Shown here piece after piece: positions 1,213-36,930 of a stretch of 64,000 nt of DNA. This DNA comes from Escherichia phage LF82-9. The notes under the pieces are model-generated. The model saw only the letters and a program-made list of their open reading frames with translations. It searched no databases and was not told the DNA's origin. The translations under genes were made by a program, and so were the position numbers. Each line of letters opens with the position of its first letter. Position 1 is the first letter of the stretch. The stretch is from the sequence record PV660452. One strand, written 5' to 3'.

Positions 1213-2901
1213 TTATGAAACAGTCATTACAGTAAATCGTCCAACTTTACTCATCTGAAGATGTTGTCCATAACGTTGAGGGTCATGGTCTCGATGAGAG
1301 ATAATGAACACGTTAGTATTTTGTAAACTTCCAAGAATGGTATCTATAGCCTTAACAGCTTCAGAATCTACAGCGCCGTCAAAAACCTCATCAAGAATCA
1401 ACGTGTTGATTTTAACACCAGAAACTTTTTCAGCAATATCTCGCCATGTAAACAACAATGCGATATCGATACGTGCCTTTTCACCTTGACTAAATGAAGC
1501 ATAACTAAAATCTTCACGACCACGTGATTTTATAGATTCATTGAATTCTTCGTCAATAGAAAACACATAATCAGCTTCCATGATTTTAAGGTAATGGTTA
1601 ATCTGCTTGTTGAACAGAGGCACATATTTTTTAATGATAGCACCTTTAATACCAGAATCTTTTAACATATCTGTTATAATACCACGATGGTATTTTTCAA
1701 GAACGTTATCCGATTTTGTTTTAATGATTTTATCAAGTTCTTTTTGAAGCAAAGCTATCTCATCGGCATGGTCGATAAATTCCGCCGAGGCTTGTTCTAT
1801 TGCAGCTTTAACTTTCTTAGCTTTATCAATAGTGGCAATCATTGCTTGTTTCTTGGTACGAATATCAGATGCAAGGTCCTGTTTAGTCTTAACATTAGCT
1901 CTATATTCGTCCACTAGGACACTCAGATTATCTCTGTGACAGGTAAGTTGCTCGAATGAGTGATTACATTCATGAAGCTTATCGGTAATCTTAGAGACAA
2001 TAGGATCACCCTGGTGCAACTGTGATGCACAAGTAGGACATGTGCCACCGTCATGATACATCTTAATAACTTTGTTGTATGAGTCGATTTTAGATTTAAT
2101 CAAGAATGCTTCTTGTCCTATCTTGTTGAATGCCTCAGTAGGGTCTTCATCAAGAACGATATTAAGTAGTCGCTCATTAGCTTCTTCGATTTCCGCTTTT
2201 AATGAACGAGCTTCTTTGGCTAGGTCGTCATACATATTCTGTAGACGCGCTACATTATCACCAGATAATTTCTTTTGACGTTCGATATTCTCGTTATAAA
2301 TCTTAATTTGTTGGATAACACCATCTTTCTTAGCATCGAGAACTTGTCCCTGGGAATTAAGTTCTCGAACTTGAGACTTATTGATTTTATCCATTTCAGC
2401 GAGTGTGCCGACTTCTAAAAGGTCTTCGACAAGTTTTCTACGAGCAGGGGTGCTAAGAGCCATGAAAGGGGTATACCCTGCCGTCCCAAGCACAACGATC
2501 TGTTTAAAAGACGCGTATGACATTCCGATGCTACGTTCAAATTCTTCTTGGAAGTCACGACTGCTGGCAGATTCATCGAGACGAACACCGTCAACGGAGA
2601 TTTCGAAAATATTGGGCTTTTGGCCTCGTTTAATGAAGTATTTTTTATCATCGAATTCCATCCAAAGCTCAACTAAGAGCTCTTTCTTGTTCGTGCTATT
2701 AATGATTTGTCCTTTCTTAACATCACGAAATGGTTTACCGAAAAGTCCGAAAGTAATGGCTTCTAACATCGTAGATTTACCACCGCCATTTTTACCAGTG
2801 ATTAATGTCTTTTGGACTTTATCTAATTGGATATCAATAGGATTCCCACCTACCGACATGATGTTTTGATAACGAACACGATTTAATTTAAATGATTTCA
2901 T
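1213..2901 (-). CDS. 46: Recombination endonuclease subunit gp46 (Rad50/SbcC-like ATPase)
   Basis: 562 aa; N-terminus MKSFKLNRVRYQNIMSVG and Walker A GKNGGGKST match T4 gp46; coiled-coil middle; C-terminal FIISH motif. Confidence 0.92.
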   Translation of the reverse strand: MKSFKLNRVRYQNIMSVGGNPIDIQLDKVQKTLITGKNGGGKSTMLEAITFGLFGKPFRDVKKGQIINSTNKKELLVELWMEFDDKKYFIKRGQKPNIFEISVDGVRLDESASSRDFQEEFERSIGMSYASFKQIVVLGTAGYTPFMALSTPARRKLVEDLLEVGTLAEMDKINKSQVRELNSQGQVLDAKKDGVIQQIKIYNENIERQKKLSGDNVARLQNMYDDLAKEARSLKAEIEEANERLLNIVLDEDPTEAFNKIGQEAFLIKSKIDSYNKVIKMYHDGGTCPTCASQLHQGDPIVSKITDKLHECNHSFEQLTCHRDNLSVLVDEYRANVKTKQDLASDIRTKKQAMIATIDKAKKVKAAIEQASAEFIDHADEIALLQKELDKIIKTKSDNVLEKYHRGIITDMLKDSGIKGAIIKKYVPLFNKQINHYLKIMEADYVFSIDEEFNESIKSRGREDFSYASFSQGEKARIDIALLFTWRDIAEKVSGVKINTLILDEVFDGAVDSEAVKAIDTILGSLQNTNVFIISHRDHDPQRYGQHLQMSKVGRFTVMTVS

Positions 2902-3152
2902 ATGTATTCTCTTCGAATGAAGTCCTCTACATATTTTAACATGTCATCCCTATCAGCAAAATATTCATCTAGTTCTGCATACATAACAACACCTGGTGCG
3001 TACTCACAGGTAACATACATTGTTCCAAAGAAACGAGGAGTTGATTCCTCGTAATTCTCAGTCCATTCAACGATACCAATATAACCGTCACCAATACTAA
3101 ATTCATGACGATGGATTTCATAATCAGTCTTCGTCATTATACGCATCCTCAA
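2898..3152 (-). CDS. Hypothetical acidic protein (84 aa), translationally coupled between 47 and 46
   Basis: ORF track; 4-nt overlaps with both neighbours. Confidence 0.5.
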   Translation of the reverse strand: MRMRIMTKTDYEIHRHEFSIGDGYIGIVEWTENYEESTPRFFGTMYVTCEYAPGVVMYAELDEYFADRDDMLKYVEDFIRREYI

Positions 3153-3381
3153 TACACGCTTCAGCCATTTTAAGAATAGAGCCAGGAGTATCGTTGTCCA
3201 TTATATTAAAGCTAAATTCAACAGCCCAGTCGGTGCAGACATGAACTGCTTTAACTTCATTGCCTTCAACACGTAATGGCTCAATCCAATACTTGATAGT
3301 GTTCTCGAATCCATCATCATCTTTAACGTCTATTTCAACTTCAAGCCCGAGCCCAGCATTGTTAAATTCATCTAAAGTCAT
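3124..3381 (-). CDS. Hypothetical acidic protein (85 aa) between 47 and 46
   Basis: ORF track; start overlaps the gp47 stop. Confidence 0.5.
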   Translation of the reverse strand: MTLDEFNNAGLGLEVEIDVKDDDGFENTIKYWIEPLRVEGNEVKAVHVCTDWAVEFSFNIMDNDTPGSILKMAEACIEDAYNDED

Positions 3382-4397
3382 TGTGTTGCCTCAATATAAA
3401 GTTCGTTGGAATATTTAACCAGCGCTTCTCTGTCTTCGTTTGAGATATCTGGAATCGCGTCAATATATTCTTTAATGATATCTTGAAGTGATTTAATCTC
3501 GATTTCCTGGTCGTCATCAGATTCAACACTGTTATCAACTTTAGAAACCATACGAAGAGAGTGAACTACTTTTTCAAGTTCAGATTCAAATTTAGTCAAC
3601 TCTGAATCAATTTCTGATACTATAACACGTACGGCTAGATTAGTATAATCAGAATAATTGATTTTGCCTTTAAATGGATAAGTGATTCGTCGATGCCATG
3701 TTGTTTCATTAGGAATAAATTCCATACGTTCAACATCAGTGTCAAATACCCAGAATCCGCGAGGGTCGTTCTCGTCACCTGCAGTAAGGGTCCATGGTGT
3801 CCCAATATATTTGACGTTAGCAGCTTCAGAGATTGTGTGGAAGTGGCCAGACCAGACTTGTTTATAGGTCTTTAAGAAATCAGGTTCAAGCCCATGAGAC
3901 TTCATTCCTTTATAGAAATAAAAGCCGTTCAGTTCCCAGTGGCCAACACAATACGCGGCAGAAGAAGTCTTGATGTGCTCTAAGATTTCACCTGTATTTT
4001 CTTCACACATCCATGGAACGATATCAATCAGACATCCGTCAAAATCTACAGTAGTTGGATGCTCGTAAATAGTAAAGTTTTCAAATTGAGTCAACAATTC
4101 AGAAACAGTGTTAGGTGTTATTGTATTCTTAAACGCCATGTCATGGTTTCCTATCGTGACATGAACGTGAATGCCTGCTTTAGAAATCATATCAACGATT
4201 TCACGATTGAATTCCATTGTACGATGTGTTATTGCTTTACGGACGTCAAACCAATCACCGTACTGAATCCAAGTTTTAATCCCGTGTTTCTTAGAGTATT
4301 CAATTGCTTGACGAATACCATCACGTTGAATATCTTGGACCCATGGGTCGTCTTGTTTGACTCCGATATGGAAGTCGCCTAAGTGCAAAATTTTCAT
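3378..4397 (-). CDS. 47: Recombination endonuclease subunit gp47 (Mre11/SbcD-like nuclease)
   Basis: 339 aa, same length as T4 gp47; phosphoesterase motifs GDFH, GDWFD, GNHD, GHWE, GHFH. Confidence 0.92.
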   Translation of the reverse strand: MKILHLGDFHIGVKQDDPWVQDIQRDGIRQAIEYSKKHGIKTWIQYGDWFDVRKAITHRTMEFNREIVDMISKAGIHVHVTIGNHDMAFKNTITPNTVSELLTQFENFTIYEHPTTVDFDGCLIDIVPWMCEENTGEILEHIKTSSAAYCVGHWELNGFYFYKGMKSHGLEPDFLKTYKQVWSGHFHTISEAANVKYIGTPWTLTAGDENDPRGFWVFDTDVERMEFIPNETTWHRRITYPFKGKINYSDYTNLAVRVIVSEIDSELTKFESELEKVVHSLRMVSKVDNSVESDDDQEIEIKSLQDIIKEYIDAIPDISNEDREALVKYSNELYIEATQ

Positions 4398-4443
4398 ATT
4401 ATTTCCTCATTAGTTAATTCATTCTATCATCCGTTTATAAAGC

Positions 4444-4467
4444 AAAAAAGGAACTCCGAAGAGTTCC
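4444..4467 (-). terminator. Intrinsic terminator hairpin (GGAACTC-ttcg-GAGTTCC) plus U-run on the minus-strand transcript
   Basis: Perfect 7-bp inverted repeat at 4450-4467 followed on the minus strand by TTTTTT (plus-strand AAAAAA 4444-4449). Confidence 0.6.
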
Positions 4468-4640
4468 TATCCACATAGTACACCGTACAGAGGCTCATTT
4501 GAACTTTTAAATCGAATGGGCTTGTACGTAATAGTTCCTTCGGCTTTAGCTTTATCATAAGACTCTTTAAAACGTCTCATTCTTTCTGCTTTGCCTTTAC
4601 GGATTTTATCGAAATTTTCAGAAGTCGGGATGTTCGTCAT
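4467..4640 (-). CDS. Hypothetical small basic protein (57 aa); below the ORF-track size cutoff
   Basis: Manual translation MTNIPTSENFDKIRKGKAERMRRFKESYDKAKAEG...; SD GAGGTG upstream; terminator directly after the stop. Confidence 0.45.
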   Translation of the reverse strand: MTNIPTSENFDKIRKGKAERMRRFKESYDKAKAEGTITYKPIRFKSSNEPLYGVLCG

Positions 4641-4679
4641 GCATAAGCACCTCTCAGAAAATGCCTAAATCGATTTCTC

Positions 4680-4901
4680 TCATCGTTTCCACCATTTCTT
4701 AACTTGAAATGAATCAACCCACACGAGTTGTTTTGGGTCTGCCTTTACAATAGGCGGACAAATTTCTGTAATAGAACCGTCGTGATATTCCTTTTCGGAA
4801 ATTTTAACACAAAGAGGACCTCCCAATTTAAGGGAGAACCCTGCGTTCAGCTTCAGACGTTTAAACTTTGTTTGAACTAGCGCCATTAATGATGTCCTCA
4901 A
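4680..4901 (-). CDS. Hypothetical protein (73 aa)
   Basis: ORF track only; start uncertain. Confidence 0.35.
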   Translation of the reverse strand: MRTSLMALVQTKFKRLKLNAGFSLKLGGPLCVKISEKEYHDGSITEICPPIVKADPKQLVWVDSFQVKKWWKR

Positions 4902-5184
4902 TAGCCTGACGAGTAGTAATCCACTGGATTTTAATTAACTTGTCATTGTATGGTTGTCGTAGAATATCCCGAGATTTCTTAATAGCATATTCGTAAGCTT
5001 CGAAGTTGTTTTGAATTGCTGCTTCTTGAGCATGTGCATAAAGACGGTTTAGTTCAAAACGATTCTTTTTAAGAATCTTTTCGGATTTTTTACGTGCTTC
5101 AGCTTCATTTTTCTTTTGGATTTCTTGTAGCATTTTAGCTACTGCATCTTCTGCTTCTTTATTTTCAATAATCTCGGTAGTCAT
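4861..5184 (-). CDS. Hypothetical protein (107 aa), K/E-rich helical
   Basis: ORF track; lies where alpha-glucosyltransferase sits in T4. Confidence 0.45.
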   Translation of the reverse strand: MTTEIIENKEAEDAVAKMLQEIQKKNEAEARKKSEKILKKNRFELNRLYAHAQEAAIQNNFEAYEYAIKKSRDILRQPYNDKLIKIQWITTRQAIEDIINGASSNKV

Positions 5185-5185
5185 A

Positions 5186-5401
5186 TTATCTCATTAAATT
5201 AAAATAAAAACGTCCATCCTCTTCAATACAGAACTCGTACTCAACTGGAGTCCCATTTATTGAAAATGACACGTCATGTGGGTTCAAAGGGTCGATGTCA
5301 AAATTAATTTTAAATTCACGACCCAACAGTTTTACCAAATAAGGGATTGCTTCGTCAAAAGGTTCTTCTAAGTAGTTAGAGATGTCAATTGTCATCCTCA
5401 T
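5186..5401 (-). CDS. Hypothetical protein (71 aa)
   Basis: ORF track 5186..5479 trimmed to the internal ATG (MRMTIDIS...) so it no longer overlaps gene 55. Confidence 0.4.
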
Positions 5402-5942
5402 ATAAAAAATCCAAACTAGGCGAATCGCTAACAACTTCCTTCTTTTCAGCCCCAGGAGCTTTATAAGCGGATTCTTCATAATGCGTCATTTTATCGTAGA
5501 TGTCTTGAATAAACGTTTCATCTACCAACGCTACCATATCATCGTCATGACTGTCGTAGACATTATGAACGAAGTAACTATATTTCTTTGCAACTTCCTT
5601 ACGTTCTTTTTTGATACGTTGGACAAAAGCATTAAAACAAGCTCGAGTTATGTATGCATGTGGGTTATTGTACTTAGTTTCGTCGAAATTATGAAGTCCC
5701 TTAATAGAGGCTTCAATCCCATCTGCAATCATCTCCTGCTTCCAAGACTGGGTATATCCTGAAAAGTTGAAACGTTTGGACAGGCCTTCGGCGATAAGCA
5801 TAATTGCTAAACCGATGGTATCATTCTGACGAATAATTTTGTTTGGGTCTTTATTATTTAAGAGCTCCTTTTTCCACTCGATTATAGCGGCGAGAAGCTC
5901 TTTATTATTCACATAGTTATTTTTAGGTTTTTGTTCAGTCAT
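5385..5942 (-). CDS. 55: Late-transcription sigma factor gp55
   Basis: 185 aa from ATG at 5942 (SD AGAGG); sequence ...[23 protein letters not shown]...[39 protein letters not shown] matches T4 gp55 from memory. Confidence 0.9.
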
Positions 5943-5963
5943 AAGTACCTCTTGGCTCAATTC

Positions 5964-32910: not shown

Positions 32911-33867
32911 TTATTTGAAAGGTTTTACCATATGAAAGTTTTGTTTGAAACGCTTGACGTAATCGTCGTGTCCTAAGCTTTGGTACATACTTACTACTTT
33001 GCTATAATTTTCCCAAGCGAACTCACGGAACCATCCTGATGTGATTGATGTACAGACCTTTTCAAGGGCCATCATAAAACTATCACGTGGATGGATTTCA
33101 AAGTTATTAGGAATCTGAGAACGTTCTAACGCTAGTACACATGATTCTTCGTATACGCCGGCCAATTTGACCATTTCTGGTAATGATTCGAACTTCTCGC
33201 GTGAGGTCATGACTTCAGAACCATCTTTCATATAAAATGTATACGCTGGACGGTCCGTTAGTGCAATGGCTTCGTGAATAGTATCATGGTCATACGTATA
33301 GATGTCATCTTTAAAGAATGCGCTTTTAGAAGTGTCAAGAACTGGGTGAGCATAGTTCAAGGTTTCTTTCTGGCGTTTCAGCATAATTTCATTAAGTTCA
33401 TCGTTCAGTGTAACACCTTTACCACGAAGATACTGAATATGGTTCATAGTCTTTAAAAAGAATGGATTATTTTTCTTGAAACGATGGGACATCTTAATTG
33501 CAAGGCACATCTCAGGAGTTGCCCAGTAAAACCCGTTCAAACGGTCTTTAGTCAAATTTTTCTTGGCGTATTTTAAAAGGTCATAAGAAGACGTGAAATC
33601 TTCAGGAGTGAGTTCACCGACTAATTCACGGACATTAGTGATTGCCGGAACAATATATGCTTCAAAATGAGTTTCGCGCCCATTATGGAAGCATTTGAAA
33701 ACTTGGACATCAGGGTTATCTTGGTGAACATATACACCCATCATTTGATTTTTGAATGCATTCCAAGAACCTTGGTCCGCAATAAAGTCCCAATCACTAT
33801 TTTTAATAGCGCTAGAATCAATAAGACCGTGATAGTGAAGTGCACGAGAACCAATAACTAACATCAT
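32911..33867 (-). CDS. Hypothetical protein (318 aa) with nucleotidyltransferase-like N-terminal motif
   Basis: N-terminus MMLVIGSRALHYHGLIDSSAIKNSDWDFIAD (GS ... SDWDF); spacing longer than canonical, assignment tentative. Confidence 0.5.
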   Translation of the reverse strand: MMLVIGSRALHYHGLIDSSAIKNSDWDFIADQGSWNAFKNQMMGVYVHQDNPDVQVFKCFHNGRETHFEAYIVPAITNVRELVGELTPEDFTSSYDLLKYAKKNLTKDRLNGFYWATPEMCLAIKMSHRFKKNNPFFLKTMNHIQYLRGKGVTLNDELNEIMLKRQKETLNYAHPVLDTSKSAFFKDDIYTYDHDTIHEAIALTDRPAYTFYMKDGSEVMTSREKFESLPEMVKLAGVYEESCVLALERSQIPNNFEIHPRDSFMMALEKVCTSITSGWFREFAWENYSKVVSMYQSLGHDDYVKRFKQNFHMVKPFK

Positions 33868-33895
33868 AATATTTTCCTCGGATTAATTCATTAAC

Positions 33896-34147
33896 TTAAA
33901 TTTCACGACATGCGATATTATATTCATCCCAGAGGTCATCATGTGAAGCCTCTACCAATGGAACGATTGTACCGTTTATGTCTTCATTATAAGGGCAAAT
34001 TGTACAGTGCGCATCTTCGAATCGGATGCCTTTGTGTTCAGATTTTTTATAACGCATATCGAATATCTTTGCAAACTTTTCACGAGTAATGGTTTTACCA
34101 ACCACTTTGGTTCCGATACTTTCGTAATAAATCATTGTGGACTCCAT
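33896..34147 (-). CDS. Hypothetical protein (83 aa)
   Basis: ORF track. Confidence 0.45.
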   Translation of the reverse strand: MESTMIYYESIGTKVVGKTITREKFAKIFDMRYKKSEHKGIRFEDAHCTICPYNEDINGTIVPLVEASHDDLWDEYNIACREI

Positions 34148-34163
34148 TTGTTTTGATAGGACT

Positions 34164-34193
34164 ACTATAACATAGCCCTATCTTGTTGTAAAC
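34164..34193 (-). promoter_or_regulatory. Early-promoter cassette (GTTTAC; ATAGGACTA / TAGCCCTAT stem)
   Basis: Near-duplicate of the cassette at 32869-32898. Confidence 0.5.
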
Positions 34194-34197
34194 TGTT

Positions 34198-34395
34198 TTA
34201 GCAAGAATAACTAGATGATACCCAGCCTTGAACAGTGATACTATTGTGGGATAATGAGATCGCGTCCTGGAGATTCAGACCTGCGTTATCTTCAATCCAT
34301 AATGTAACTTCTTCGCGTTCTTCTGTTGCAATTTGGAACAGGTTTTCCAGAGCAGCTACTGCCGTACGTACAGCACAATCTAATTCACGAGACAT
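34198..34395 (-). CDS. Hypothetical protein (65 aa)
   Basis: ORF track. Confidence 0.4.
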   Translation of the reverse strand: MSRELDCAVRTAVAALENLFQIATEEREEVTLWIEDNAGLNLQDAISLSHNSITVQGWVSSSYSC

Positions 34396-34404
34396 ATGAT
34401 TTCC

Positions 34405-34677
34405 TTAGCATTCCATAGAAGATGCAACCCAACCACCTGATTCGAGGCTGGTGTAATATGAGTGTTGGTTGACAGTGGCCCAATTCGGATTGCCTTGTTC
34501 GGTATAATGCTCAAGTTCTTTTTTCAAGAATCCAGGAGAATAATACGTTCCACCCATACCATAAGCTGGATACAAGTCGAATGTTGTGTTTTGTTTATCA
34601 GCAATTTCTTTGGCAGCCTCAATAGCTGCATAGATTTTTGCTACAGCTTCAGCCAGTTCGGTTTGTTCTTTAGACAT
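34405..34677 (-). CDS. Hypothetical protein (90 aa); paralog of the next gene (shared C-terminus GGWVASSMEC)
   Basis: Both start MSK..., share YYSPG/YYPKG and end WVASS-x-x-C. Confidence 0.5.
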   Translation of the reverse strand: MSKEQTELAEAVAKIYAAIEAAKEIADKQNTTFDLYPAYGMGGTYYSPGFLKKELEHYTEQGNPNWATVNQHSYYTSLESGGWVASSMEC

Positions 34678-34686
34678 AATGATTCC

Positions 34687-34992
34687 TTAGCACAACGCAG
34701 AAGACGAAACCCAAGCACCTTCAGTAATAACGTAACCATTACCTTCACGCTTAACATCGCCACCATTATTTTCAATTTCATCTTTCATCCACTGGGATAC
34801 GATTTCACCCTTAGGATAATAAGTACGACCGCTACCATAATCACCTACAGAAAACGATACAGCGTATTGGTCTGCAATCTTTGTAGCTTCTTCTTCGATA
34901 CGTTCAGCTTGATTCAGAAGTTTATAAATTGCATCTGAAGCGGATTTGGCATCATTAAACTCTGGTACTTTAATTTCAATAATCTTACTCAT
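34687..34992 (-). CDS. Hypothetical protein (101 aa); paralog of the previous gene (C-terminus GAWVASSALC)
   Basis: Shared N- and C-terminal motifs with 34405..34677. Confidence 0.5.
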   Translation of the reverse strand: MSKIIEIKVPEFNDAKSASDAIYKLLNQAERIEEEATKIADQYAVSFSVGDYGSGRTYYPKGEIVSQWMKDEIENNGGDVKREGNGYVITEGAWVSSSALC

Positions 34993-35348
34993 TTTCTACA
35001 TTCCTTAATAAAGTTTTCTATTGTTTCATTTTCACGTCTAGCTAGGAGTTCATTATAACTAATCATTTGAGAAGCGTAAACCTTTTTATTTTTCTTGTTA
35101 TGGTTTATAAAATCGTAGTAAAAATAGACTACAGTACAAAATGATGCGATGGATGCAAAGGCTTGAGTATATCGTAAGTCCTGCCATTGGTCTGTGAATC
35201 CACCGGTGTTCCCTATAAATCCTAACACAACTCCGTCAATAAGAAATCCAACTAATCCAAAGGCAAATCCCATGCCAATACTCATAATAAAAATTAGAAT
35301 GTTCTCACCGAGAGAAGGCCGTACGGTTAAGAGTTGAGGCTTTTGCAT
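34989..35348 (-). CDS. Hypothetical membrane protein (119 aa) ending in ENFIKECRK
   Basis: Two hydrophobic helices; shared C-terminal motif. Confidence 0.5.
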   Translation of the reverse strand: MQKPQLLTVRPSLGENILIFIMSIGMGFAFGLVGFLIDGVVLGFIGNTGGFTDQWQDLRYTQAFASIASFCTVVYFYYDFINHNKKNKKVYASQMISYNELLARRENETIENFIKECRK

Positions 35349-35722
35349 CTTATTTCCTTAACGAATTCCATAGCTTCTTCATATTCATACTTTTTAACAG
35401 CTTCAACATACTGAGCTTGGGCTTTTGCGCACTGAACTTTCCACTCGCGAACTCGAGCTCTGTGATGACGGCCTTGGTGCCAATATCCTGCCCAATTAAT
35501 AGGCATTAATAAAAACGGTACAATAAGTGGTGCGACGAACATTAATGAAAACGCTGCATCAGACGTTATAACTTTATTGGAATCTAAAATAGCTCCTATA
35601 ATCATAAAGATTAAAAATGCTAAAGCTAAAATAGGGCCAAATAGTACTTCGTTTGGGATTAATTTACGTTTGTATTCGTATGCCCAGGGCTTAATTGGCA
35701 TGTACAGGGTTGGCTTTGACAT
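35327..35722 (-). CDS. Hypothetical membrane protein (131 aa) ending in MEFVKEIRC...
   Basis: ORF track 35327..35752 trimmed to ATG at 35722; hydrophobic helices. Confidence 0.45.
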   Translation of the reverse strand: MSKPTLYMPIKPWAYEYKRKLIPNEVLFGPILALAFLIFMIIGAILDSNKVITSDAAFSLMFVAPLIVPFLLMPINWAGYWHQGRHHRARVREWKVQCAKAQAQYVEAVKKYEYEEAMEFVKEIRCKSLNS

Positions 35723-36308
35723 ATTCTCTACATTCCATAATAAATTGCTCAAGGATTAAATTGTTAGTGAAATTAGGACTAACAACCATAGTTTCATAAA
35801 GCGCATCAATAGCACTTAAAGCATCAACTCTTTTAAGCAAAGGCTTGCCTTCATACATAGTTTCAGAATCGATGATTAACGTAAAGTAATATTTTTTATT
35901 ATCGACTAGAACTTCTGTATCGATATAAAACATATTAGACCTCAGAAGCTTATCTCTAAAACCATAATAATCTTCTGAACGTTCGCTGATATATTCCCAT
36001 TCAGTGTTTAAACAACAAACAGACCATGTAGGAGCAACGAAATCAGTGAATCTAATATCATGGTCTGCAACTAGTTTAGCAATAGCTCCGATATCATGAA
36101 TCATAATACCTGGGGCTAATAAAGATTTTCGGCGATTTGCGTATTCAGTTGTCTCATAAGAAGCTGACCAGTACCATTTACGTCCAGTTGCAACATATCG
36201 TAATGAATCAACTAAAGACGTAGGTGGATTTACCTTATCTCGGAACTCTTCGAACATTGAGTCAATATCATTATTTTGGTTTCGCATGTTAACTCCTTTA
36301 TTATCCAA
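35691..36308 (-). CDS. Hypothetical protein (205 aa) ending in EQFIMECREY...
   Basis: ORF track. Confidence 0.55.
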   Translation of the reverse strand: MDNKGVNMRNQNNDIDSMFEEFRDKVNPPTSLVDSLRYVATGRKWYWSASYETTEYANRRKSLLAPGIMIHDIGAIAKLVADHDIRFTDFVAPTWSVCCLNTEWEYISERSEDYYGFRDKLLRSNMFYIDTEVLVDNKKYYFTLIIDSETMYEGKPLLKRVDALSAIDALYETMVVSPNFTNNLILEQFIMECREYVKANPVHAN

Positions 36309-36336
36309 AAGGAGGACCGGAGTCCTCCGTATTATT

Positions 36337-36930
36337 TTATTTCAAAGAGTTAATATATTCTTGTACATCAGCAGAAGTGGTTTCGACACCGGCTGGAGTA
36401 CCATTGAACGTTTCAACACGAGTCAGAGTGTCTTCGATATCAACCTTAGTCAGTGCAGCGATTTCAATTACATCATCGGCCGTAGAGATACCAAGGGCAT
36501 TGGCTGCTCGAGTTTCACGAATGTATTCGAGTTTGATTGCCAGGTTCTGACGAGCATCGTCAAGTTCAACCACCTTACGAGCAATTTCAATTCGCATAGC
36601 GGCATACCCGTCAGCTTTTGTATTAAGTTGTTCGGCAGTTCGACGATACAGAAGACCAAGCTTAGCATGCATGGTAACATCTTGTCCTTCAGCCAGGAGC
36701 TTACGAATTTCACGTTCCTTAGAAGCGGCTTGCTTGTTCTTTTCATTAACAAGTTCGCGAATACGTTTTTCTTCATTAATAGATTTAACAGAAGCCGTTT
36801 TTAGTTCTTTGATCTGGGTAATCAACTTATCTGCAGCTGCGTTATACTGTTCTTCGACAGTCAGATTTTTAGCCATAGCAGTACCCAGTTTAGTGCGGAT
36901 AAATTCAACAAGTTTCTTCAGTGTGTTCAT
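36337..36930 (-). CDS. PspA/IM30-like all-helical coiled-coil protein (197 aa); assignment tentative
   Basis: Length and continuous heptad-rich composition resemble the PspA/Vipp1 family; ATG at 36930 with SD AAAGGTAA. Confidence 0.4.

Follow-up and report, generated by a model that had tools for sequence, protein, structure and literature searches.

Genes 47 and 46 are a core gene pair of T4-like phages (PMC2993671). Between them, bacteriophage T4 carries two small genes that have been annotated for decades: in the T4 genome (NC_000866.4), gene 47 (35428-36447) is followed by 46.2 (35168-35431), 46.1 (34981-35187) and gene 46 (33302-34984), with overlaps of 4 nucleotides (nt) at the two outer junctions and of 20 nt between 46.2 and 46.1. 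The corresponding locus of Escherichia phage LF82-9 (sequence record PV660452) was examined within a stretch of 64,000 nt, referred to here as the window. Two small acidic open reading frames, ORF1 and ORF2, lie between genes 47 and 46 in the window, with all genes of the region on the minus strand (Table 1), and comparison with T4 shows them to be the Mosigvirus orthologues of 46.2 (upstream) and 46.1 (downstream), respectively. A preliminary description of the window, made from its sequence, had taken gene 47 of T4 to be directly followed by gene 46; this is incorrect, as the T4 annotation places both 46.2 and 46.1 between the two. The genes 46.2 and 46.1 are real, conserved and dispensable accessory genes restricted to one lineage, and they do not constitute a new insertion. 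No functional study of gp46.2 or gp46.1 (Y03C, Y03B, DUF5487) was found in the literature. On the evidence assembled below, it is reasonably probable that these orthologues are independent cargo of a slot at the 47-46 junction and encode non-essential accessory proteins that bind other proteins.

Family membership of both ORFs is unambiguous. ORF1 matches Pfam family PF25721 (T4_Y03C) with 151.8 bits (E 6.2e-45; residues 1-85 on model positions 1-85 of 85) and phrog_2192 at 1.4e-43, while ORF2 matches PF17589 (DUF5487) with 49.2 bits (E 5.6e-13; model positions 5-65 of 66) and phrog_2327 at 2.1e-33; both Pfam scores lie above the curated gathering cut-off, which is 27 bits for either family. 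Like T4 gp46.2 (UniProt P13330, Y03C_BPT4; PHROG 2192), to which it is 54% identical, ORF1 is encoded directly after gene 47 with an ATGA overlap, and the two proteins (85 amino acids (aa) in the window, 87 aa in T4) share the conserved motifs TDWAVEFSFN...DDTP...MAE.CI.DAY. The overlap with the next gene differs, being 14 nt for ORF1 and 20 nt for T4 46.2, but ORF1 is otherwise an orthologue-level variant. ORF2 is 43% identical to T4 gp46.1 (UniProt P32268, Y03B_BPT4; PHROG 2327), likewise lies directly before gene 46 with a 4-nt overlap, and shares with it the conserved core F.(I/L)GDG...G.MYVT.EY..GV...DEYF...M. It is 11 aa longer than the T4 protein because it is extended at the N-terminus and contains an insertion, EESTPR, that is specific to Mosigvirus, and its start codon is ATG where that of T4 46.1 is GTG.

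The layout of the locus agrees in most respects with that first proposed. ORF1, which contains 22 aspartate and glutamate residues against five lysine and arginine residues, begins at an ATG preceded by GAGG at 3389-3392, 7 nt upstream. The mechanical list of open reading frames runs ORF2 back to a TTG at 3152, giving 84 aa, but the ATG at 3135-3137 is to be preferred, because it has GAGGA 8 nt upstream (3146-3150) and is the one indicated by the RefSeq annotation of near-identical phages and by the family alignments. The gene 47/ORF1 and ORF2/gene 46 junctions are both 4-nt ATGA overlaps (3378-3381 and 2898-2901), and ORF1 and ORF2 overlap by 14 nt (3124-3137), so that the stop/start overlaps form the kind of chain (4, 14 and 4 nt) looked for in translationally coupled genes. 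The preliminary description was thus right to report small, acidic and tightly overlapped ORFs inside the operon between genes 47 and 46, and its 4-nt overlaps hold at the two outer junctions, though not between ORF1 and ORF2. The 3.2-kb operon is 100% identical to that in the records of the Mosigvirus phages Escherichia phage LF82-1 to LF82-35 and 98-99% identical to that of other Mosigvirus genomes. No paralogue of either ORF was found within the window.

Searches with tblastn identified homologues of 46.2 in 755 phage records and of 46.1 in 719, including T4, T2, T6, RB3 and RB14. By comparison, gp47 homologues are present in 2372 phage records, of which 1075 encode a protein at least 60% identical to the window gp47, and the homologues of the two ORFs correspond to ∼70% of these 1075. 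Because the T4 annotation contains both ORFs and homologues are present in 755 and 719 of the 1075 records, T4 and most of its relatives carry them, and the proposal that the ORFs are an insertion relative to T4 fails: T4 and the homologues in these records occupy the same slot. For the T4 superfamily as a whole, the idea of an insertion is nonetheless reasonable. The distribution is linked to host group, as shown by Klebsiella phages, in which gp47 occurs in 323 records and either ORF in at most three. An exhaustive search of 1.84 billion representative proteins with a 46.2 profile returned 11 matches. Seven of these are small proteins of the family; of the four remaining matches, all to large proteins, the one inspected (P0048) is repetitive and looks spurious. 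No 46.2 homologue was found in this search beyond a sub-clade of Tevenvirinae.

The two genes also assort independently of each other. Both are present in T4, in the Mosigvirus of the window, in Kanagawavirus Q7622 and in fDHCT2, whereas 46.1 stands alone in Karamvirus vB_Ent31, Moonvirus Merlin and Gelderlandvirus S16, 46.2 stands alone in Gaprivervirus SP18 and Kanagawavirus PEi26, and Jiaodavirus PKO111 has neither: there, the start codon of gene 46 is a GTG overlapping the stop codon of gene 47. Since each occurs without the other, 46.2 and 46.1 are best treated as two independent cargo genes. In the members examined, their position is preserved: 46.2 lies directly downstream of gene 47 with an overlap in the window, T4, fDHCT2, Q7622, SP18, PEi26 and metagenomic members, and 46.1 lies directly upstream of gene 46 with an overlap in the window, T4 (GTGA), Ent31, Merlin, S16, fDHCT2, Q7622 and P0029. 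Even the most divergent metagenome members (30-40% identity) have the same slot and the same overlap geometry. In phages that lack 46.1, it is gene 46 that overlaps the end of 46.2 by 14 nt, its start lying where 46.1 starts in the two-ORF phages, and the presence or absence of 46.1 thus looks like the precise gain or loss of a cassette at the start codon.

Two of these junctions appear to be misannotated. In phage S16 (locus L011, 3520-3726), the deposited 40-aa 'gp35.1' is likely to be a full 68-aa gp46.1 with a GTG start that overlaps the gene 47 stop codon, and in PKO111 (locus L010, 3520-3562), the annotated start of gene 46 is an internal ATG, although a start at the GTG over the gene 47 stop codon brings back the conserved N-terminus VKTFKLNRVKYKNIM. 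The 47-46 junction probably carries a mis-called start in at least two public records.

A wider survey suggests that the 47-46 junction is a recurrent site of gene gain. A gp47 profile was used to retrieve 79 IMG/VR loci, taken from the best 80 of at least 586 matches, so the proportions given here are indicative only. In 44 of the 79 loci, gene 47 passes directly to gene 46, with a 4-nt overlap in 31, a 1-nt overlap in nine and a spacer of 2-6 nt in four. The remaining 35 contain inserts of 100-1400 nt that fall into many unrelated clusters, and their occupants include DUF3110-like, HNH-like, methyltransferase-like, epimerase-like and RB49-type ORFs. The suggestion in the preliminary description that the two ORFs could be small passengers fits these numbers, with direct junctions in more than half of the loci and unrelated cargo elsewhere. 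Among more distant T4-like phages, the slot holds two ORFs in Acinetobacter phage Konradin (one of 85 aa and a phosphoesterase-like one of 203 aa), four ORFs in Krischvirus, a common family of ∼95 aa in Pseudotevenvirus and a Slopekvirus-like phage, a 74-aa ORF in a KVP40-like phage, and an 82-aa acidic DUF3110 protein (Pfam 1.6e-14) in Synechococcus phage S-CAM22 (locus L017, 3532-3780). Like 46.2 and 46.1, these other occupants are often small and acidic and often overlap the flanking genes, yet no homology to 46.2 or 46.1 was detected (no Pfam match; hhalign probabilities of 2.4% and 0.1%); the RB49-type block of four ORFs is a further T4-like occupant of the same slot that has no detectable homology to either. 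The Slopekvirus and Pseudotevenvirus junction ORFs were considered as remote homologues on the strength of a weak hmmsearch match (7.8 bits) and rejected on the same hhalign values.

Several of these occupants merit separate mention. An 82-aa protein of the DUF3110 family is also found in the slot of 15 IMG/VR cyanophage-type loci (a subset of L063-L106); the cyanophage DUF3110 protein abuts both neighbours and overlaps the gene 47 stop codon by a single base at its start. Larger cargo was recognized in some environmental T4-like contigs by inspection of motifs only, and comprises an HNH-endonuclease-like ORF (L085, 5052-5696), a DNA-methyltransferase-like ORF with a DPPY motif (L051, 5038-5769) and an NAD-epimerase-like ORF (L102, 5059-5805).

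On the simplest reading of this survey, gene 47 and gene 46 are directly coupled in the base state of the T4 superfamily, and the junction repeatedly gains cargo. In the ancestral arrangement, the direct overlap would couple the synthesis of the two nuclease subunits, and cargo that is retained would usually keep the overlaps, leaving the hand-over of ribosomes to gene 46 intact, although some cargo in other lineages does not. In the window, genes 47, 46.2, 46.1 and 46 share a single mRNA, and their frames are chained by stop/start overlaps.

On E. coli K-12, as published data show, T4 can do without 46.2 and 46.1 but not without gene 46. HIDEN-SEQ transposon sequencing of T4 (bioRxiv 10.1101/2025.11.20.689424) found insertions at all 18 TA sites of 46.1 and at 23 of the 24 of 46.2, both of which are classed as 'Non-essential', as compared to two of 149 TA sites in gene 46, which is classed as 'Essential'. 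Both small genes are likewise 'Not Fit' in a CRISPRi-ART screen (PMC11879866 supplement). In a T4 infection time course, the 46.2 and 46.1 transcripts were classed as early, and gp46.2, whose signal in mass spectrometry rose with time, was assigned to the middle proteins; for gene 47, the transcript was early and the protein middle (PMC9697503 supplement).

Both genes are under purifying selection. The ratio of nonsynonymous to synonymous divergence (dN/dS) against five Mosigvirus relatives is 0.13-0.23 for ORF1 and 0-0.12 for ORF2, values that derive from small counts, and against T4 it is 0.22 and 0.14, respectively. Some residues are invariant even among family members that are only ∼30% identical. 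Nonsynonymous evolution is two to three times as fast as in gp47, with dN against T4 of 0.36 for 46.2 and 0.53 for 46.1 as compared to 0.18 for gp47. Separately, comparison of window positions 2898-4397 with the Mosigvirus phages ST0 (L018) and phi25-307 (L020) gave a dS of ∼0.5 for gp47 and of 0.07-0.12 for 46.2 and 46.1, and this difference implies a mosaic operon with a recombination breakpoint near the 47/46.2 boundary. The sequence P0013 is a chimeric gp46.1 in which the N-terminal 52 aa are of the window type and the C-terminus is of the T4 type.

AlphaFold2 models, built from alignments of 22 family members for ORF1 and 16 for ORF2, predict compact single-domain proteins with high confidence. 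The ORF1 model (predicted local distance difference test score (pLDDT) of 91.5) has an α-β4-α topology, in which four strands follow a first helix and precede a long C-terminal one, and the ORF2 model (pLDDT of 90.1) has a β4-α topology of four strands and a C-terminal helix. A search for structural neighbours of the two models yielded none that were informative, and neither protein matched a solved structure by sequence or a family in NCBIfam. In general architecture, the models are like the phage binders or inhibitors and type III secretion chaperones AcrIF24 (7dtr), SycT (2bsj), ExsC (3kxy), TriTu (7zhm), phiKZ Dip (5ft0) and T7 Gp1.2 (7u65), with which they have in common a four-stranded antiparallel sheet, one or two helices and a small acidic chain. 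The similar β4-α topology suggested that 46.2 and 46.1 might be paralogues of each other, but paralogy is not supported, because hhalign assigns it a probability of 0.3%.

Taken together, the roles open to 46.2 and 46.1 are narrowed to those compatible with proteins that are dispensable, independent of each other, faster-evolving than the core, linked to host group and built from a single domain, at least one of which (gp46.2) is expressed. This combination argues against an integral subunit of the nuclease. An integral or obligate gp46/gp47 subunit was considered and is unsupported, because the genes are dispensable where gene 46 is essential, are absent from phages with closely related gp46 and gp47, and assort independently; gp47 occurs in far more records than either ORF (2372 versus 755 and 719), and direct junctions account for 44 of the 79 surveyed loci. 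We tentatively favour the view, to which we would give somewhat less than an even chance, that each protein is a small acidic single-domain α/β protein that would act as a stoichiometric binder of another protein, the target more probably being a host- or condition-specific factor than gp46 or gp47. We prefer a target of this kind because the genes are linked to host group and evolve faster than gp47, and because the cargo of the slot is of mixed nature. In an enterobacterial host, the target may for instance be a protein of defence or of DNA-end processing, and synthesis of both proteins would coincide with that of the recombination nuclease. A more specific version appears doubtful, namely that the 47-46 junction is a slot dedicated to coupled cargo, any gene in it being expressed when the nuclease is, and that 46.2 and 46.1 are condition-specific factors acting at DNA ends. 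They might then be inhibitors of a host nuclease or of a defence that senses recombination intermediates, or might tune gp46/gp47 on natural hosts only.

The chief alternative is that the two proteins modulate gp46/gp47, or serve as accessory subunits, by binding the complex and tuning its assembly, its choice of DNA ends or its timing, for example by restraining the nuclease on phage DNA. The preliminary description had raised modulation of the nuclease as one possibility, and this part of it is weakened, since T4 tolerates insertions in both genes and related gp46/gp47 phages do without one or both: where gp47 is still 64-74% identical (PKO111 and IMG/VR loci L031, L032, L034 and L038), one or both ORFs are missing. 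All members examined, down to ∼30% identity, lie between genes 47 and 46 with conserved overlap geometry, the two genes share their timing (early RNA, middle protein) with T4 gene 47, and the chained overlaps would yield roughly matched synthesis with the nuclease subunits. Weighing against modulation are the dispensability of 46.2 and 46.1 in T4 alongside an essential gene 46, their 'Not Fit' classification, their independent assortment, the unrelated proteins that fill the slot in other lineages (an HNH-endonuclease-like and a methyltransferase-like one among them), and the confinement of homologues to a sub-clade of Tevenvirinae although gp46 and gp47 are a core gene pair. We consider a modulator unlikely, and less probable than a host- or condition-specific target; it is the strict positional conservation that keeps the modulator in contention.

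Two further explanations dispense with a role in the nuclease. If the ORFs arrived as a homing-endonuclease-type insertion at the 47-46 junction, they may be remnants or cargo of a mobile element and persist as passengers, whether selfish or neutral. Genes for HNH or homing endonucleases are indeed annotated at or near the junction in vB_EcoM_Lutter, KMB40, PhiZZ23 and HMGUkp2, an HNH-like ORF occupies it in L085, and both the mosaic operon of ST0 and phi25-307 (gp47 dS of ∼0.5 versus ∼0.1 for 46.2 and 46.1) and the chimeric 46.1 P0013 would suit such a history. We nonetheless regard it as improbable: no nuclease or other mobility motif was found in ORF1 or ORF2, neither has been found outside the slot (each record holds one place per gene, save that 46.2 occupies 756 places in its 755 records, the extra place being uninspected), the window contains no paralogues, and purifying selection spans deep divergence. 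It is less probable still that the proteins are functionless and that the ORFs are spacers whose translation merely relays ribosomes from gene 47 to gene 46. The stop/start overlaps at each junction and the weak Shine-Dalgarno sequence of gene 46 in the window (AAGAGAA) are what such a relay would predict, and the direct 47/46 overlap is the commonest arrangement elsewhere; those same direct junctions, however, show that no ORF is needed for the hand-over. Purifying selection on the protein (dN/dS of 0-0.23), the invariant residues, the confident compact predicted folds, the accumulation of gp46.2 in infected cells and the tolerance of T4 for insertions that break both ORFs upstream of an essential gene all speak for proteins that do something.

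The favoured reading, of independent accessory protein-binders in a coupled slot, has several observations weighing against it. Neither protein matched an anti-defence or defence family in PADLOC or NCBIfam, and acidity is not distinctive, as roughly a quarter of the small ORFs in the window have a pI below 4.5. T4 gp46.1 (Y03B_BPT4) went undetected by mass spectrometry (PMC9697503 supplement). In its text, the HIDEN-SEQ preprint does not place either gene among those conditionally essential with RexAB, RnlAB, CBASS, DarTG1, DarTG2 or minimal medium, and names neither as conditionally essential on the clinical isolates it discusses (bioRxiv 10.1101/2025.11.20.689424). A position next to genes 47 and 46 that is strictly kept even at 30% identity could signal a link with the nuclease itself. 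With regard to coupling, RNA structure at the three junctions is no more stable than that of shuffled sequence (z of 0.18, 1.51 and 0.23), and because no start-occluding structure stands out, it is the overlaps that suggest translational coupling along 47-46.2-46.1-46. The transposon insertions tolerated upstream of the essential gene 46 argue against a strict dependence on such coupling in T4 (bioRxiv 10.1101/2025.11.20.689424).

Table 1. Features of the 47-46 locus in the window of Escherichia phage LF82-9.
Feature	Position	Strand	Description
Terminator-like hairpin	4449-4468	minus	AGGAACTCTTCGGAGTTCCT then T-run; consensus scan and sequence reading
Middle-promoter-like site	4421-4447	minus	MotA-box-like TTTGCTTTA, 11-nt spacer, TAGAAT; sequence reading
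Gene 47, Mre11/SbcD-like nuclease subunit	3378-4397	minus	339 aa; phrog_100 (SbcD-like) 1.8e-135
ORF1, orthologue of T4 gene 46.2	3124-3381	minus	85 aa; isoelectric point (pI) 4.05
ORF2, orthologue of T4 gene 46.1	2898-3137	minus	79 aa; pI 4.31
Gene 46, Rad50/SbcC-like ATPase subunit	1213-2901	minus	562 aa; phrog_77 (SbcC-like) 7.6e-194

The flanking genes make up a Mre11/Rad50 (SbcCD-like) operon, in that genes for a calcineurin-like phosphoesterase subunit and an SMC/ABC-type ATPase subunit adjoin and are co-oriented. The window gp47 is 76% identical to T4 gp47 and matches the Pfam Metallophos model with 30.6 bits (cut-off 21.5), and gp46 matches AAA_23 (49.7 bits) and SMC_N (45.7 bits), each above its cut-off. 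A CPTC motif in gp46 is like that of a zinc hook, but the zinc-hook hidden Markov model scores just 16.1 bits, as compared to a cut-off of 24.3.

Upstream of gene 47, the middle-promoter-like site lies ∼20 nt from the Shine-Dalgarno sequence of the gene, and the arrangement of TTTGCTTTA, 11 nt and TAGAAT resembles the T4 middle-promoter consensus. The site is likely the start of the 47-46.2-46.1-46 transcription unit. Just upstream of this promoter region, the terminator-like hairpin is predicted to close the preceding unit, which contains a 57-aa ORF, and the two elements together look like a terminator/middle-promoter pair that bounds the 47-46 unit. No convincing promoter or terminator was found to divide the unit itself; promoter-like matches numbered 20, with 17.2 expected by chance. 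A weak terminator-like hairpin is present inside ORF2 (3033-3052, minus strand; ACGAGGAATCAACTCCTCGT then TTCTTTGG), within the stretch encoding the Mosigvirus-specific EESTPR insertion of gp46.1, and may be no more than a chance match, or else may act as an attenuator before gene 46. Farther upstream, the interval between gene 47 and the gene for the gp55 sigma factor (4467-5960, minus strand) is without the T4 genes 47.1, alpha-gt and mobB and, like that in other Mosigvirus records, holds only small ORFs (57, 73, 107 and 97 aa in the list of open reading frames).

As a departure from T4, the locus has little significance, since the supposed difference is absent and both ORFs already have Pfam and PHROG families of their own. 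Of more general use is the observation that the 47-46 junction is a recurrent insertion point at which the stop/start overlap is usually kept, which provides a useful annotation rule for T4-like genomes. If the junction were indeed a slot reserved for coupled cargo expressed along with the nuclease, and 46.2 and 46.1 condition-specific factors in it, this would assign a function to two long-annotated T4 genes (P13330 and P32268) and would mark a predictable place in which to seek counter-defence genes in other T4-like phages.

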